Origin: Alphaproteobacteria bacterium | GTDB lineage: Bacteria > Pseudomonadota > Alphaproteobacteria > RF32 > CAG-239 | DNA: 64,000 nt | Direction of reading: 5' to 3' | Assembly: GCA_015062235.1 (NCBI GenBank) | Contig: SUUZ01000003.1 | Span: 94,736 to 158,735, forward strand | Part shown: positions 250-61,859 of the stretch, piece after piece | How the letters are laid out: each line of letters begins with the position of its first letter | Position numbering within the stretch: position 1 is the stretch's first letter | The notes under the pieces: model-generated | What the model saw: the letters and a program-made list of their open reading frames with translations, nothing else | Told to the model about the DNA's origin: nothing | Databases searched by the model: none | Made by a program: the position numbers and the translations under genes

Positions 250-678
250 GCCTATATTGAATTAAAAACAAAAGAAGATGCTTTGCTTGATTTTTATTTA
301 GAAGGAAAACTTCCTCAAGCAACATATGAAGCAAAACAAGAGCAAATTGCGAAACAGCATCAAGAATTAGAAGCAACTGCAGAAAAATATAAAACTATAG
401 ATAGCACAATGAAAGAAAGCATTTGTAAAGTTATGTCTATGAGTTGCAATATCTCTGAAATTTTTGATAAAGCCTCACCTACTCGCAAAAATCAGCTACT
501 AAAAATCTTAATATCTGACTGCAAACTTAATGGTAAAGTGCTTGAATATAAAGTAAAAGCTCCTTTTGATAAACTAATCCGATGTAATGACTACAAACAA
601 TTATCTATTGTTGTCATAGATAATTTAAATGAGTTTGAAGGCGTTAAGGTGTGTGGAAAACATCTTATAGTGGTTTAG
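250..678 (+). pseudogene. Recombinase-like C-terminal fragment; probable remnant of a serine-recombinase-type gene
   Basis: The ORF opens directly after a stop at 247-249 and has no catalytic N-terminus. 'LLDFYLEGKLPQATYEAKQEQIAKQHQELEA' resembles the coiled-coil 'LY LDG-I…Y…K…EL' segment near the C-terminus of large serine recombinases. It sits at the edge of a low-GC islet. Confidence 0.35.
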
Positions 679-766: not shown

Positions 767-795
767 TTGACAATTCAAAATTATTCTTATATACT
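767..795 (+). promoter_or_regulatory. Consensus sigma70-type promoter
   Basis: TTGACA (767-772), a 17-nt spacer, then TATACT (790-795). This is a near-perfect -35/-10 match, about 140 bp upstream of the GIY-YIG gene. Confidence 0.45.
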
Positions 796-935
796 ACCAT
801 CTGTATTTACAAATACAAAAAAAGCCACCCAGCAAGGTGGCTCGGAGTTATATTAACCCCTGGAACGGTTTAAATGTAACTCCATGTGTTTAATTTGTCA
901 ACAATTATGTTGACACTAAGTAATGGAGAATAAAT

Positions 936-1253
936 TTGAATAATTATAATAATCGGGTCTCCTATTCCCCTCAAAATAGGAACTATATTCCAACATCATC
1001 TGGTGTATATATCATCACAGATACTTGGGGCAATGTTAAGTATGTTGGTCAAGCTAATGACTTAAGACGCCGTTATGAAGAGCATCTTTCTTATCAAGAA
1101 CCAAATATTGAGTTAAGAAATTTCCTCAGGAATAACTATGCTTTCTTTCAATATGAAGTAATATACTATCAGGGTGATCGTAACTCTGAGGAGTTACGCA
1201 TATATCGTATGTATAGACCGCCTTTTAATCACATGCAACCTCCAGCGGCTTAG
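936..1253 (+). CDS. Small stand-alone GIY-YIG nuclease-domain protein (YhbQ/UPF0213-like)
   Basis: 'GVYIITDTWGNVKYVGQANDLRRRYEEH' is a classic GIY-x10-YIG…R…E motif. The protein is 105 aa and consists of the nuclease domain only. It uses a TTG start. Confidence 0.7.
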   Translation: MNNYNNRVSYSPQNRNYIPTSSGVYIITDTWGNVKYVGQANDLRRRYEEHLSYQEPNIELRNFLRNNYAFFQYEVIYYQGDRNSEELRIYRMYRPPFNHMQPPAA

Positions 1254-1265
1254 CAAAAAAAATAA

Positions 1266-1300
1266 AGGGGCTAAAAATTCGTTTTTTAGCCCTAGTTCAC
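1266..1300 (+). terminator. Rho-independent terminator after the GIY-YIG gene
   Basis: GGGGCTAAAAA-ttcg-TTTTTAGCCC hairpin followed by a T-rich tract. Confidence 0.55.
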
Positions 1301-1358
1301 CATTTTTTAACATTTTTAATATATTCTTTGTTTGATTTTAACACAGAAAGAGGTCAAT

Positions 1359-2666
1359 ATGTTAGTTGAATTCAAATTTAAGAACTTTAGAAGCTTTAAA
1401 AACGAAGCTTATTTTTCTATGAAACCTTCTTCATTAAATGGTAATAATAAAAATACAATATTAACAAACTTAAAAAAAATTCCTCAAATATACAGAACTG
1501 CGGGTATTTTTGGAGCAAATGCATCTGGTAAATCAAATATAATCAAAGCTTTTCAGCTTTTTAAATTTTTAATTAAAACAAGTTTCAAATCTGAAATAAA
1601 CGACTTAATTAATGAAGATAGATATGTTCTAGATGATGAAAACACACATAAACCAACTTCTTTTGAAATCTCATTTATTTACAATAACAACCTTTATAAA
1701 TATGGAATAACTTATGTACCTTCGGAAATATTAAAAGAATTTTTAACATACACAGATATATCTGAAAATGGGTCAGCTCGTGAAAATATTGTATTTTTAA
1801 GAGAAGCTGGAAAAGAATTAAAAGCTAAAAACATATCTCAATCATGGATTAATGAACTGGCTCCTAATAGGCTTTTCCTCTCAGAAATTGTTAACAATCG
1901 ACGTAGCACTGATGAACATATTATGAATACATATAACTATATTGTAAATAATATTAATGTGACTAATAATAATTCATCAGAAAAAATTTCATTCGAAATG
2001 TTACAAGGTAATGAAGGACAATTAATTATAGATTACATAAAAGAAGCTGATTTAGGTATAGAAGATATTTCTATTAAAGAATTATCCCCTGAAGATATTA
2101 TGGAAGATATAAAAAATGATAAAAACAAGAATAGTAGAGATTTTGCTGAACGCCTAATTAAAAATATATTATCAGGAGAGGCAAAAGTTTTTGATATAAA
2201 AGTATCTCATAAAACGGAACAAGGAATCATAAAACAATGTTATCTAGAAAATGAATCCGAAGGAACTAAAGTTTTTATTGCTTTTGCAGCTCCAATTATA
2301 AACACTTTAAGGAAAGGTGGTGTTCTATTTATAGATGAATTAGATGCTTCATTGCATCCTCATCTTGTTAGGTATATTATAAATCTATTTAATAATGTAA
2401 ATATAAACAAAAATAATGCGCAGCTTATTTTTACTTCATATGCTTTTTATTTAATGGATGGAGATGCTCTTTCTAGAGATCAAATTTGGTTTACAAATAA
2501 AAACAACAACTATTGGTCATCTCTACATTCTTTACGAGATAAAAATGAAAAACGCAAAAACAAATCATTTATAGATGCATATCTAAATGGTTTGTATGGT
2601 TATACTCCTAATATTAATATTGAAAATTTTGTTAAGCTATTTAACAACTATGAAAACAACAAATAG
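1359..2666 (+). CDS. ABC-type (AAA_21/AAA_15-like) ATPase with no fused nuclease domain
   Basis: ATG at 1359 follows an AAGAGG ribosome-binding site; the ORF track's TTG at 1332 is less likely. Walker A 'GANASGKSN' lies near the N-terminus. Walker B/D-loop 'VLFIDELDASLHP' and 'QLIFTSY…LSRDQIWF' lie at the C-terminus. This is the SMC-like split ATPase architecture typical of defence-associated ATPases. Confidence 0.7.
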   Translation: MLVEFKFKNFRSFKNEAYFSMKPSSLNGNNKNTILTNLKKIPQIYRTAGIFGANASGKSNIIKAFQLFKFLIKTSFKSEINDLINEDRYVLDDENTHKPTSFEISFIYNNNLYKYGITYVPSEILKEFLTYTDISENGSARENIVFLREAGKELKAKNISQSWINELAPNRLFLSEIVNNRRSTDEHIMNTYNYIVNNINVTNNNSSEKISFEMLQGNEGQLIIDYIKEADLGIEDISIKELSPEDIMEDIKNDKNKNSRDFAERLIKNILSGEAKVFDIKVSHKTEQGIIKQCYLENESEGTKVFIAFAAPIINTLRKGGVLFIDELDASLHPHLVRYIINLFNNVNINKNNAQLIFTSYAFYLMDGDALSRDQIWFTNKNNNYWSSLHSLRDKNEKRKNKSFIDAYLNGLYGYTPNINIENFVKLFNNYENNK

Positions 2667-2711
2667 TTAATTAGTCCGTGTATTACAAGGTGCTTCCAGC
2701 CAGAGTTCAAA

Positions 2712-2740
2712 AGTCGTCAGAAATGGCGACTTTTTCTTTT
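2712..2740 (+). terminator. Rho-independent terminator after the ATPase gene
   Basis: AGTCG-tcagaaatgg-CGACT hairpin followed by TTTTTCTTTTATTTT. Confidence 0.5.
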
Positions 2741-2865
2741 ATTTTCAAACATTTAAGCTGCCTCGAAGATGAATATATTTTGAAGGCTTGTTTTACAACA
2801 TCTTCGAAATCACTTCTATAGTTTTCAATAACTTAGTAAATTTTAACAAAAATATCACCCTAGAT

Positions 2866-3729
2866 TTATAGTTTTCTTACTCCAACAGACATTGTCATCT
2901 TGTGCCTTTCTTTAGGTGCTAAAACAACAAAATTACTCCCTTGATTAGCAGGTTCAACACATATAAATTTTTTATATTGTCCTTCACTCATTTCAGCTAG
3001 ATCTTTATTAGGATTCCAAATAACCGTAGAATTTGAATCTGTTTTTTGTAATGTTATAATACGATTTAATTTATTATCTACGATTTCAATATCTTTAGTA
3101 TGATTAAAAAATGCGACATCAACTTCGCCCTTAATTTCTAAGTCTTTTTCTTGAGTGTAAATTTTACCATCTAATGAATTATGATATTGATGCCCTAACA
3201 AACCTTTAATTACAACATCATCTCTATTCCCAACATAAAAATAAGCATGCAACGCCTCACTAAACCTAAACTCTTTATTGCCATTATTAGTTGTCTCTAG
3301 ATAACATTCCAACTTATCAGTAATTTTAATATTGAAACTAACATCCACATCAAGATTAAATTTTGCATCTGGTTTCAAAAACAAATTAACTTCTATTTTT
3401 TCTTCATCCACTAAAATGTCTTGAACATCCCAAACAGATAATCTTGCAAAGCCATGTCTTGGAAAATGGTTGTTTAATGTTTCCTCTGCAAAACGAGGCC
3501 AACAAACAGGTATTCCTCCCCGAATAGCTTGTATTTTATCAAACTTATTTAAATCTCCCAACCAAAAAACATCATGTTTTTCTGTTTTTGGTCGATATGA
3601 TACAATGTTTCCTCCAAAAAGAGATATTTTGCATTCAGCTTTTTTATTACTCAATTTTATAAAAGAGTTTTTATTAAAAATCATATTTTTGCCTTTTACG
3701 TAAATTACAACAATTATATCATCAGGCAT
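2866..3729 (-). CDS. yeaD: D-hexose-6-phosphate mutarotase (glucose-6-phosphate 1-epimerase, YeaD family)
   Basis: 'IRGGIPVCWPRFA…HGFARLSVW' and the overall length match the aldose-1-epimerase-like YeaD family. Confidence 0.7.
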   Translation of the reverse strand: MPDDIIVVIYVKGKNMIFNKNSFIKLSNKKAECKISLFGGNIVSYRPKTEKHDVFWLGDLNKFDKIQAIRGGIPVCWPRFAEETLNNHFPRHGFARLSVWDVQDILVDEEKIEVNLFLKPDAKFNLDVDVSFNIKITDKLECYLETTNNGNKEFRFSEALHAYFYVGNRDDVVIKGLLGHQYHNSLDGKIYTQEKDLEIKGEVDVAFFNHTKDIEIVDNKLNRIITLQKTDSNSTVIWNPNKDLAEMSEGQYKKFICVEPANQGSNFVVLAPKERHKMTMSVGVRKL

Positions 3730-3859
3730 GACCTCATTTTATGTCAACAAATTTTATCTTTTAATATACAGAACTTCACCAATAAAAAACTTGATTAATT
3801 ACTAACAATAGTTAAAATACCTGACAGTTTTTCATAATAATAAATAAAAAGGACAAAAG

Positions 3860-4276
3860 ATGACTTGGTTTCTATTTGCTTTAGGAGCTGCATTATTTGC
3901 AGCACTTACTTCAATTTTAGCCAAAATAGGTTTAGAAGGAATTAGTTCAAATGTCGCTACAGCAATTCGCACAATTGTTATATTAGCCATGTCTTGGGGT
4001 ATTGTTTTCTTTACAGGATCTCACAATCAATTAAGCTCAATATCTAGCAAAAACTGGTGGTTTTTAATAGCTTCTGGCATTGCAACAGGAGCATCATGGC
4101 TCTGCTATTTCAAAGCATTGCAAATAGGTGATGTTTCAAAAGTTGTTGCAATTGATAAATTTAGTTTAGTGCTAACTATCATATTATCTGCAATAATCTT
4201 AAGCGAAGTAATGACATTAAAAGTAATAGTTGGATGTCTATTAATCACAGCTGGTACTCTTTTAATGATTTTATAA
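3860..4276 (+). CDS. EamA-like small membrane transporter (4-TM, DMT superfamily)
   Basis: 138 aa, four hydrophobic helices, EamA-type glycine/alanine-rich TM segments. Confidence 0.5.
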   Translation: MTWFLFALGAALFAALTSILAKIGLEGISSNVATAIRTIVILAMSWGIVFFTGSHNQLSSISSKNWWFLIASGIATGASWLCYFKALQIGDVSKVVAIDKFSLVLTIILSAIILSEVMTLKVIVGCLLITAGTLLMIL

Positions 4277-4316
4277 AAATAAAACAACCTTTATCTTAAA
4301 TAGGCTAATTATCATC

Positions 4317-4997
4317 ATGGATATATATCAAGATATACGACAAGTTTTAATTGATAACGCTGAAACTTGTTATAAAAATTTTCTAATAAAACTTATTCCT
4401 AATTGTTCCAATATTCTAGGAGTTAGAATACCTTTTTTAAGAAAAATAGCCAAACAAATATGTTCAAATAATTGGCAATCATATATATATCATAATCCTA
4501 TTTTTTTAGAAGAAACTTTATTGCAAGCTATAATCATCGGTAAAAAATCTCAAACCATTAGTGATTTCAACAATATTAAAAACTTTATTCCCAAAATAAC
4601 CAACTGGGCAATTTGTGATACTTTTTGCTCAAGCTTAAAATTTATAAAAAACAATAAAGATTATTGCTTAATATTTTTAAAACCTTACCTATCTTCCTCA
4701 AAAGAATTTGAATTACGCTTTGGCTTAGTGATACTACTAAACTATTTTATAGAAGAAAAATATCTACCACTAATTTTCAAAACACTCGATAGTTTCAAAA
4801 ATAATCAATACTATGCTCAAATGGCTGCAGCTTGGCTTCTTTCTTCTTGCTTTATAAAATTTCCCAATCGAACCTTAATTTACCTAAAAAAATCTCAACT
4901 TGATAAAACAACTTACAATAAATCTATTCAAAAAATTATTGAATCTCAACAAGTAGACAGGTCATTTCATCCCTTACTGAAAAGTATGAAACAATAA
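4317..4997 (+). CDS. DNA alkylation repair protein (AlkD/AlkC-like HEAT-repeat glycosylase family)
   Basis: 'NILGVRIPFLRKIAK' and the helical-repeat composition are typical of PF08713. Very AT-rich. Confidence 0.5.
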   Translation: MDIYQDIRQVLIDNAETCYKNFLIKLIPNCSNILGVRIPFLRKIAKQICSNNWQSYIYHNPIFLEETLLQAIIIGKKSQTISDFNNIKNFIPKITNWAICDTFCSSLKFIKNNKDYCLIFLKPYLSSSKEFELRFGLVILLNYFIEEKYLPLIFKTLDSFKNNQYYAQMAAAWLLSSCFIKFPNRTLIYLKKSQLDKTTYNKSIQKIIESQQVDRSFHPLLKSMKQ

Positions 4998-5058
4998 TTA
5001 TAAATGACATAAAAAAGCGGCCCACTAATGGACCGCTATAATAAGTCATTATTATATT

Positions 5059-7022
<1,964 letters not shown>

Positions 7023-7928: not shown

Positions 7929-8594
7929 CTAAAACAACCAGAATGCAACAACAATTCCTGACAAAGCTATCATAGGACCAAATGCTAACACAGATTTCTT
8001 TCTAATCAAACTATACACAATTCCTAAAACAGATGCCAAAACAATCACATAAAGAAGCCCTTCAACTCCCAACCAAGCTCCAAGAGCTGACAACAGCTTA
8101 ATATCTCCACCTCCAAAAGCATCTTTATTACGCCAAACAATCAAAAGACTAACTAACACAGGTAAAAAATAACCAATAAACGCTCCTATCGCACTTTCAT
8201 TAAAAGCAACAAATCCCATATTTAAACTTGAGGCCAAAAAACCCAATAAAAGCAATGGAACAGTCAGTATATCTGGTAATAAAAATATTCTAAAATCAAT
8301 TTCTGCCATAAGTAACAAAAGCCATATATACATAGCTATAAATCCAAAACCATGTACCCCAAAATGTATATACGCTAAATAAGTAATTATAGCAAAAGCA
8401 AAAGCTTCAACTATTGAGCGCCAAACAAGCTTTTTATACAATTTATTACGTCTGTATAAACTAACTTTTTTAGTTGGACGAAAAATCTCAAACAATGCAC
8501 CTGCAAAAGTTGCAGGCATAAATTTAGCAAATCTTCTTGCAGTATAAGGAGTAAACAAACCAAAAATAAGAGCCAGTAAAATATAAAACACCAT
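7929..8594 (-). CDS. Prepilin peptidase (A24 family, PilD/CpaA-like)
   Basis: Polytopic membrane protein with a 'GGGDIKLL' motif. ATG at 8594 follows a GGAGAG ribosome-binding site. Confidence 0.6.
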   Translation of the reverse strand: MVFYILLALIFGLFTPYTARRFAKFMPATFAGALFEIFRPTKKVSLYRRNKLYKKLVWRSIVEAFAFAIITYLAYIHFGVHGFGFIAMYIWLLLLMAEIDFRIFLLPDILTVPLLLLGFLASSLNMGFVAFNESAIGAFIGYFLPVLVSLLIVWRNKDAFGGGDIKLLSALGAWLGVEGLLYVIVLASVLGIVYSLIRKKSVLAFGPMIALSGIVVAFWLF

Positions 8595-8681
8595 CGATTC
8601 TCTCCACTTTACATTCAAATACTAGCCTCAAAACAATAAAAATTAATTAAAGTTCTCTAAAATCCAATAGGTGCAAGATTT

Positions 8682-61768: not shown

Positions 61769-61859
61769 GGACAGGTGGCCGAGTGGTCGAAGGCGCACGA
61801 TTGGAAATCGTGTATACCTCCAAAGGGTATCCAGGGTTCGAATCCCTGTCTGTCCGCCA
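61769..61859 (+). tRNA. tRNA-Ser (anticodon GGA)
   Basis: GGACAGGTGGCCGAGTGGTCGAAGGCG… cloverleaf with a long variable arm. The anticodon loop TTGGAAA gives anticodon GGA. T-arm GGTTCGAATCC; 3' CCA is encoded. Confidence 0.9.

Follow-up and report, generated by a model that had tools for sequence, protein, structure and literature searches.

A GIY-YIG nuclease gene in place of RloB beside an AbiLi-type ABC ATPase: a candidate defence cassette from gut-type Alphaproteobacteria

We analyzed a 64,000-nt stretch of contig SUUZ01000003.1 from the Alphaproteobacteria bacterium assembly GCA_015062235.1 (positions 94,736 to 158,735 of the forward strand; hereafter, the window), in which a gene for a small GIY-YIG nuclease (936..1253, plus strand) is followed by a gene for an ATP-binding cassette (ABC) ATPase of the AbiLi/RloA family (1359..2666, plus strand). 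It is fairly probable that this pair constitutes an AbiL-like defence cassette, in which the ATPase would act as sensor and keeper, the GIY-YIG protein would be an effector supplied in trans, and synthesis of the nuclease would be gated by an antisense small RNA (sRNA) acting on an anti-Shine-Dalgarno (anti-SD) switch. The assignment of the keeper and effector roles is made by analogy with the AriA-AriB and AbiLi-AbiLii pairs. The linkage of the two genes is real, given their recurrence at eight loci, their co-divergence and the purifying selection on both. Sequence comparisons point to a single replacement of RloB by the GIY-YIG gene, followed by stable co-inheritance of the new pair.

Conservation and origin of the gene pair

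Within the subclade of ATPases that are 52–100% identical, a small GIY-YIG gene (105–127 aa) was found 98–116 nt upstream of the ATPase gene at all eight ATPase-bearing loci, and the order, orientation and spacing of the two genes are invariant across about seven genomic contexts. The ATPase identity to the window protein is 71% at L001/L002 (P0002), 70% at L003 (P0003), 58% at L008 (P0005) and at L091-93, 57% at L010 (P0004) and 52% at L009 (P0008), whereas the L129 ATPase falls into the same 90% cluster as that of the window; the GIY-YIG gene is immediately upstream in every case, so that the co-occurrence on which the original prediction depended is found without exception. The subclade comprises eight clusters at 90% identity, all of them from gut-type alphaproteobacterial metagenome-assembled genomes or metagenomes. 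In the host genome, a metagenome-assembled genome of an uncultured alphaproteobacterium, the two products are annotated as 'GIY-YIG nuclease family protein' and 'ATP-binding protein', and nothing more.

Outside this subclade the usual partner of the ATPase is RloB, which is encoded directly downstream in nearly all of 84 related loci with ATPases of at most 51% identity. In the next relative, P0010 (51% identity; L004-7), an rloB gene overlaps the ATPase stop codon and the GIY-YIG gene is lacking. Among 80 loci from GTDB species genomes with ATPases of at most 49% identity, an RloB homolog is encoded directly downstream in all but about ten; three of these ten or so loci without detectable RloB were looked at, and two of the three end shortly behind the ATPase gene. 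RloB is likewise encoded downstream of the ATPase in L132 (44% identity), and a gene annotated as 'RloB family protein' comes next in plasmid homologs (29–34%). This GIY-YIG gene is absent from all of the RloB-side loci checked (the 80 genome loci, L004-7 and L132). Conversely, a hidden Markov model (HMM) of 67 RloB sequences, applied to all frames of the 64-kb window at E<=1, detected no RloB, intact or decayed.

In a neighbour-joining tree with 200 bootstraps, the GIY-linked ATPases are monophyletic (197/200), nested inside the RloB-linked ATPases and sister to L004. The pairwise identities of the GIY-YIG proteins and of the ATPases across loci correlate with r 0.96, and four of five pairs show about equal synonymous divergence (dS) in the two genes. 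The ratios of nonsynonymous to synonymous divergence (dN/dS), 0.06–0.15 for the GIY-YIG gene and 0.08 for the ATPase gene, are those of strong purifying selection.

The L132 contig is that of a T7-like phage, in which the ATPase and rloB genes (4001-5885) are flanked by the scaffold/Phage_T7_Capsid gene on one side and the gene of the major capsid protein on the other. The pair is a phage-borne AbiL-type module in a structural operon.

Family and structure of the ATPase

The two open reading frames (ORFs) lie where the original prediction had placed them, and its description of a 435-aa ATPase with Walker A and Walker B/D-loop motifs and an insertion, without a nuclease domain of its own and preceded by an essentially bare GIY-YIG domain, agrees with our results. 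The mechanical ORF list gives the ATPase 444 aa from a TTG at 1332; we place the start at the ATG at 1359, behind AAGAGG, because every homolog begins with MLVEF.

We assign the ATPase to the AbiLi/RloA family on the basis of its sequence matches. Among the PADLOC profiles, it matches AbiLi (PDLC02335) with E 6.3e-83 and 276 bits, and all other matches are at least 55 orders of magnitude weaker, including AriA (6e-28), PtuA (2e-6 for the best profile, residues 324-401 only) and GajA (8e-6), three of the families against which the original prediction had proposed to compare it. The AriA and GajA matches are confined to the generic ATPase core, the AriA profile being a Pfam-like AAA_21. Indeed, AAA_21 is the sole Pfam domain in the protein (E 3e-28). 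The housekeeping families RecF, RecN and SbcC, which had been named as the competing assignment, contributed no matching NCBIfam model. The homology to RloB-linked ATPases is full-length (96–98% coverage).

The Walker A motif GANASGKSN, the signature ESEGT and the Walker B/D-loop LFIDELDASLHP are present and conserved in homologs, with FIDE as the Walker B core. The H-loop is different. The position of the H-loop histidine, after the strand 355-360, is occupied by Tyr361 (codon at 2439-2441) in the window ATPase, in P0002 (L001) and in P0003 (L003), giving TSYAF in this subclade versus TSHAH in RloB-linked relatives. In all GIY-linked ATPases the SHAH motif is changed to S[HY]AF, the second histidine being replaced by phenylalanine.

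An AlphaFold2 (AF2) model of the ATPase, with a predicted local distance difference test score (pLDDT) of 78, shows an ABC head into which a domain of about 130 residues is inserted, without a long coiled coil. Foldseek searches with the model returned only generic heads of Rad50, SMC and retron PtuA proteins, at template modeling (TM) scores of 0.3–0.4, and a profile search against PDB sequences gave no match at E<=1e-3.

The GIY-YIG nuclease and its relatives

The 105-aa nuclease is a catalytic domain only, with Pfam PF01541 (E 2.7e-8) covering residues 22-95. Its start codon is a TTG preceded by GGAG at 925-928 and aligned to an ATG in the relatives L129 and L130. In eight sequences that are 40–88% identical to the window protein, the residues G23 and Y25, Y36 and G38, R45/R46, E49 and H50, E86 and N98 are invariant. 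Among proteins of known structure, the N-terminal domain of UvrC (1yd6) is nearest to it, matching residues 18-100 with E 3.5e-7. The AF2 model, built from a three-sequence alignment, has a pLDDT of 50 and is too poor for use. Against the PADLOC profiles the protein gave only marginal matches to HEase, UzuA and PDC-S14 (8.6e-4 to 6e-3).

An exhaustive HMM search of 1.84 billion representatives identified 246 relatives of this nuclease at E<=1e-3, of which 12 reach E<=1e-10. Almost all are stand-alone proteins of 100–135 aa, and a fusion of GIY-YIG with an ABC ATPase occurs in none of the 246. A word-indexed protein search returned just two close relatives, and the reciprocal test of the linkage from the nuclease side rests on pattern scans together with the exhaustive HMM search. 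Of the relatives encoded on metagenome contigs, the nearest (45% identity) are linked to the ATPase, and more distant ones (30–39%) lie directly upstream of genes for a DndB/DGQHR-like protein or a metallophosphoesterase. Genes of this small GIY-YIG family thus behave as modular units of the effector type, within neighbourhoods of conflict systems. Searching phage and plasmid collections with tblastn gave no match to the nuclease, and a scan of viral contigs gave distant matches only, none of them ATPase-linked.

Several of these other neighbourhoods deserve a description of their own. At L099 (338-1996), L103 (580-2243) and L104 (262-1920), a family GIY-YIG gene, about 30–37% identical in its product, is coupled to a downstream DndB/DGQHR-like gene, and at L101/L102 the GIY-YIG gene (2897-3256) is followed by a DndB/DGQHR-like partner (3198-4697); the two genes are separated by 13 nt or overlap, and may form another candidate two-gene conflict module. 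A third type of partner, a calcineurin-like metallophosphoesterase of about 356 aa, is encoded about 110 nt downstream of the GIY-YIG gene (37–39%) at L094 (751-2257), L095 (793-2288) and L096 (83-1442). Finally, a 123-aa member of the family (E 6e-15) is encoded directly behind a ThsB-type TIR gene at a contig end (L138, 3317-4372).

Regulatory regions of the cassette

The upstream region of the GIY-YIG gene was compared across nine loci (the window, L001, L003, L008, L009, L010, L091, L129 and L130). A sigma-70-type promoter, TTGACA-17-TATACT, matches the consensus at 11 of 12 positions in the window (767..795, plus strand), and CTTGAC[AT]-17-TATAnT is found at the same place in all nine loci, about 135–160 nt before the GIY-YIG start. 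Between the promoter and the gene lies a structured 5' leader (802..935, plus strand) with the helices H1 (802-817), H2 (823-842), H3 (844-883) and H4 (896-915). The window leader folds at -39.9 kcal/mol (z -5.5), the four helices are also present in relatives (z -2 to -9), and RNAalifold reports compensatory changes at 8 of 22 pairs. Leader identity between loci is 0.67–0.86, as opposed to a neutral expectation from dS of 0.39–0.61. The identity of the flanks is 0.28–0.54, except for the upstream flank of the window and L129 (0.91), which share the islet.

The leader contains a potential anti-SD element. The 3' arm of H3 ends with CUCC plus one to four bases complementary to the SD region, giving 5–8 nt in total, with covarying flanking bases. 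In the window, CUCCAU (880-885) is complementary to AUGGAG (923-928); the corresponding pairs are UCCUUAA/UUAAGGA in L001 and CUCCUA/UAGGAG in L009. In L008 and L010 the minimum-energy fold itself pairs the anti-SD with the SD. It should be noted that MAFFT does not correctly align two subgroups in the middle part of the leader and in the 3' arm of H4; H3, H4 and the anti-SD pairing were therefore derived from folds of the individual sequences and by direct inspection.

On the opposite strand, a convergent promoter, TTGACA-17-TACATT (10/12), is predicted at 873..901, and the minus-strand pattern TTGAC[AT], a spacer of exactly 17 nt and TA[CT]A[CT]T occur in 9/9 loci, in agreement with independent scans of L008 and L003. 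Downstream of it in the direction of transcription there is an intrinsic terminator, in the window a stem running from 843 to 822 with a T-run; a GCCACC..GGTGGC stem followed by a T-run is present at each of the nine loci. These elements predict a small cis-antisense RNA from the minus strand of the leader, 48–66 nt long across the loci and about 50 nt in the window (815..866), where it would overlap H2 and the 5' arm of H3. Neither the leader nor the sRNA belongs to an Rfam family, in searches at the gathering thresholds and at E<=1, the best match being below gathering (E 0.017). Weak minus-strand matches to Phe_leader and isrD were rejected as sub-threshold and driven by the terminator. The distant GIY-YIG genes of L094-L104 lack this leader architecture.

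A terminator-like stem-loop follows the stop codon of the GIY-YIG gene (1268..1292, -15 kcal/mol); in the window it is preceded by an A-run and followed by a weak T-run. Stem-loops of -15 to -21 kcal/mol occupy the same position in 8/8 ATPase-bearing loci with unrelated stem sequences, and that of L003 is a bidirectional terminator. The original prediction had noticed this hairpin and took it as a sign that the linkage of the two genes might be coincidental. The hairpin is real, but its conservation at the eight loci makes it a part of the cassette design rather than of an accidental adjacency, and indicates that the genes belong to separate transcription units. The recurrence of the pair in about seven contexts likewise contradicts a chance arrangement.

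The ATPase gene is preceded by a weak promoter-like site, TTCACC-18-TATATT, and a short leader (1296..1358, plus strand). The leader motif ATTCTnTG...ACAGAGAAAGG and the position of the promoter are common to RloB-linked relatives, and the transcription unit of the ATPase is therefore ancestral to this ATPase gene. The promoter is a strong TTGACt-17-TATAtT in the RloB-linked relatives, whereas in the GIY clade its -35 element is weakened to TTATCA or TTCACC. An intrinsic terminator (2709..2745, plus strand) closes the cassette. Homology between the loci begins at the GIY-YIG promoter and stops at this terminator, in the 200 nt downstream of which identity falls to 0.28–0.54. By these sequence features, the cassette seems to consist of two neighbouring transcription units, one for the GIY-YIG protein and one for the ATPase, that have remained together.

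Genomic context and mobility

Defence or mobile-element neighbours were found at every context examined, and the cassette bears the signature of defence-island or mobile-islet cargo. In the window, positions 283..678 (plus strand) encode a C-terminal remnant of a large serine recombinase (131 aa), identified by tblastn with the recombinase of L003; it corresponds to residues 398-526 of that 528-aa protein at 66% identity, lacks the N-terminal catalytic domain and has a weak CcrC match. The recombinase remnant reported in the original prediction is thus genuine. As the decayed vehicle of the islet, the remnant lies outside the functional cassette. Further to the left in the host genome, 1.6–5 kb from window position 1 (L133, 3534-7039), a cluster of the restriction-modification kind encodes an HTH_3 controller, a NOV_C protein and two C5 DNA methylases, and two unassigned ORFs of 192 and 152 aa separate this cluster from the recombinase remnant. 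On the right flank, only 200 bp separate the ATPase stop codon from a convergent aldose-1-epimerase gene, the first of the housekeeping genes (aldose epimerase, GroESL) on that side.

Among the other loci, N6/N4 and D12 methylases are encoded nearby in L008 and L010, with NERD also in L008; RE_NgoBV and a rolling-circle Rep accompany the cassette in L009, a type I HsdR and Fic (4228-5379) in L129, and a Prim-Pol/PDDEXK island in L001. Serine recombinase and Bro-N genes are found together in L003 (2016-3602 and 5948-6790, respectively) and in L092 (3792-4643 and 6795-7652), the latter also with Fic (7998-8606). The recurrence of serine recombinases (intact, truncated or as a remnant) together with Bro-N and Fic suggests that the cassette is the cargo of a family of small integrative islets. 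We also considered the GIY-YIG protein as the restriction endonuclease of the adjacent methylases; this candidate was rejected, since conservation of the pair does not extend to the methylases and the host genome has its own NOV_C candidate. The sole tRNA gene in the window, tRNA-Ser GGA (61769-61859), is far from the cassette and offers no obvious integration site for it.

The base composition is a less certain guide. The original prediction described the pair as compositionally foreign, which is only partly borne out. With 28.1% GC (25.8% for the ATPase gene, 36.2% for the GIY-YIG gene) against a window mean of 33.8 +/- 2.5%, the pair ranks among the lowest 2% of 1.8-kb windows, but the GC content at third codon positions of the ATPase gene (15.6%) is similar to that of its housekeeping neighbours (17.7–18.2%), so composition alone is a weak argument for foreignness.

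Proposed mechanism and alternative explanations

In the scenario that we favour, the downstream RloB/TOPRIM gene would have been lost in one lineage of the AbiL/RloAB family, and a GIY-YIG unit complete with promoter, leader and terminator hairpin would have arrived just upstream of the ATPase promoter. An oligomer of the ATPase may bind the 105-aa GIY-YIG protein, which has no DNA-recognition domain, and either hold it inactive or target it. A phage-derived trigger would alter the ATP-bound state of the ATPase, upon which the nuclease would be released or activated, cut nucleic acid and stop the infection; DNA would be the most likely substrate for a GIY-YIG enzyme. At the RNA level, the predicted sRNA of about 50 nt would pair with the 5' arm of H3, freeing the CUCC anti-SD to close the ribosome-binding site, and loss of this short RNA, e.g., upon shut-off of host transcription, would increase synthesis of the nuclease. 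All of this is inferred: that the two proteins form a complex, what triggers it and what is cut, that the infection is aborted, and that the sRNA exists and acts as described.

An elaboration of this scheme, possible but on balance doubtful, is a three-component module with two independent triggers, in which a labile sRNA would serve as a type I antitoxin through the anti-SD switch and an AbiLi-type ATPase, perhaps hydrolysis-deficient, would be the sensor and keeper at the protein level. If true, this would be the first case of a GIY-YIG effector in an ABC-ATPase defence system, and of a type I toxin-antitoxin (TA) circuit inside an OLD/AbiL-like one.

Several observations weigh against the sensor-effector interpretation. 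The lack of a fusion among the 246 family representatives means that it has no Rosetta-stone support; the association of distant small GIY-YIG genes with quite different partners implies that the nuclease unit might be autonomous; and the small size of the clade traces the pairing to a single evolutionary event. RloB-type pairs overlap by a few bases, unlike the GIY-YIG and ATPase genes, whose conserved terminator-like hairpin and separate promoters make co-expression not obligatory. Judging by sequence, the tyrosine in place of the H-loop histidine may impair ATP hydrolysis. That the substrate is DNA is not certain either, as the TOPRIM and HNH effectors found in related systems cleave tRNA.

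Some of the same features would be expected if the GIY-YIG gene and its antisense sRNA were an autonomous type I TA or addiction unit stabilizing the islet, with the ATPase an orphaned AbiLi, acting alone or on its way out, that merely travels along. The separate promoters with a hairpin in between, the lack of fusion proteins and the other partners of related nucleases all suit this explanation, as do the convergent promoter and terminator, a layout typical of type I TA loci. We nevertheless regard it as unlikely. The ATPase is not decaying, given its dN/dS of 0.08 across dS >1; spacing, order and orientation are held constant in about seven contexts, within a block of homology that extends from the GIY-YIG promoter to the ATPase terminator; the GIY-linked ATPases share the clade-specific change from SHAH to S[HY]AF by the H-loop; and a bare catalytic domain of 105 aa usually needs a targeting partner. 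Slightly less probable again is a direct, non-abortive, ATP-dependent restriction, in which the ATPase would act on invading DNA (ends, plasmids or modified DNA) in the manner of Rad50, SbcC or Wadjet and recruit the GIY-YIG nuclease, the cell surviving. The resemblance of the ATPase fold to Rad50/SMC/JetC heads, the closeness of the nuclease to the nicking domain of UvrC and the frequency of restriction-modification genes as neighbours are in line with it. However, the ATPase has no long coiled coil, no cognate methylase is conserved with the pair, tight control of the nuclease by an antisense RNA, as predicted, points to a toxic effector, and the parent family AbiL is described as an abortive infection system (PMC13064643).

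Finally, the adjacency might be a coincidence, the pair might serve in housekeeping or repair (as a GIY-YIG protein of the YhbQ/UvrC kind with a RecF-like ATPase), or the nuclease might be a self-mobilizing homing endonuclease, given its similarity to UvrC, its weak matches to intron endonuclease models and the existence of small GIY-YIG proteins that stand alone. These explanations are very improbable and largely excluded by the co-divergence and invariant architecture at eight loci and by the patchy distribution on recombinase islets and beside restriction-modification genes, with no conserved chromosomal synteny. Besides, the ATPase is AbiLi-like and not RecF- or RecN-like, no NUMOD, DNA-binding or intron context accompanies the GIY-YIG gene, and the nuclease has no match in the phage and plasmid collections.

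Systems built on AAA_15/21 ABC ATPases (OLD, Gabija, PARIS, Septu, AbiL and others) belong to the most common immune modules of bacteria, and the control of their nucleases by the ATPase is actively studied. A swap of TOPRIM/RloB for GIY-YIG at about 50% ATPase identity provides a clean comparative pair, with which one can ask which surface of the ATPase couples the effector and whether the sensor module is plug-and-play. GIY-YIG would thereby join the list of effectors of this sensor class. PADLOC and DefenseFinder rules that require RloB will miss these loci. The antisense-type leader, if real, would add RNA-level gating of the type I TA kind to a protein-based defence, in the form of a compact riboregulator (a leader of about 135 nt and an sRNA of about 50 nt) that is easily tested.

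Comparison with known systems

The combination of an ATPase with a GIY-YIG partner appears to be new, as the original prediction had anticipated. No system model of PADLOC (v2) fits the pair. The partners of AAA15/21 defence ATPases listed by Burman et al. 2024 are TOPRIM, DUF4435, RloB, DUF4276, UvrD, DUF262, HNH and RT, and GIY-YIG is not among them. We found no description in the literature of GIY-YIG paired with an ATPase of the AAA_21, AbiL or RloB type, the ABC-ATPase survey of Krishnan et al. 2020 being outside our coverage.

Type I TA loci such as symE/symR, ralR/ralA, hok/sok and tisB/istR have convergent promoters and a short, terminator-ended antisense RNA over the toxin leader. The cassette resembles them in the predicted alternative pairing around the SD of its structured leader and in its predicted convergent promoters. 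It differs in that the toxin would be a GIY-YIG protein, the sRNA is only predicted and a large ATPase gene is always present as a third component.

Single-gene GIY-YIG defence proteins (Uzume UzuA, PD-T4-3, PD-lambda-1 and PDC-S14) and GIY-YIG restriction enzymes of the Eco29kI type use this domain as an anti-phage effector. These proteins are two to three times longer than the cassette nuclease, have extra domains and are not paired with an ABC ATPase. The HMM matches are marginal, as given above.

The original prediction had called the ATPase OLD/Septu-like. Septu and retron PtuA-PtuB (HNH), OLD and Gabija (fused TOPRIM) share with the cassette an ABC-ATPase-centred defence with an exchangeable nuclease, and PtuA structures are among the best fold matches of the cassette ATPase. 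However, its PtuA and GajA profile matches are weak, the cassette has no HNH, fused TOPRIM or UvrD partner, and no HNH ORF adjoins the ATPase gene, as would be the case in Septu. The more general part of that description, an ABC ATPase of the defence type, stands; more specifically, the protein appears to derive from the AbiL/RloAB family, in a lineage that lost RloB and gained GIY-YIG once.

PARIS (AriA with AriB, a DUF4435/TOPRIM protein) likewise combines an AAA_15/21 ATPase without a nuclease domain and a small nuclease in trans. Its ATPase sequesters the nuclease until triggered (PMC11464382, PMC13064643), which makes PARIS the mechanistic template for an ATPase scaffold that holds its effector in waiting. 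The similarity of the cassette ATPase to AriA is generic only, and the cassette has no DUF4435 and a nuclease of a different fold.

The closest system is AbiL, a lactococcal two-gene abortive infection system composed of the ABC ATPase AbiLi and the RloB/TOPRIM-like nuclease AbiLii, and grouped with PARIS and RloAB (PMC13064643; PMC11464382). The ATPases of AbiL from Lactococcus and of RloA/RloB from Campylobacter and many plasmids belong to the same family as that of the cassette, which has its length (about 430 aa) and its own promoter and leader in common with RloB-linked relatives; the two-gene logic of an ATPase and a nuclease on mobile DNA is also the same. The cassette lacks RloB/TOPRIM (PF13707) and has a GIY-YIG protein of unrelated fold instead. 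Furthermore, its nuclease gene lies upstream in a transcription unit of its own with an antisense-RNA-type leader, whereas rloB is downstream and translationally coupled. The principle of effector swapping is already familiar, which limits the surprise. Judged by these likenesses and differences in sequence, the cassette is best described not as a member of OLD, Gabija, PARIS or Septu, but as an effector swap in an AbiL-like system.

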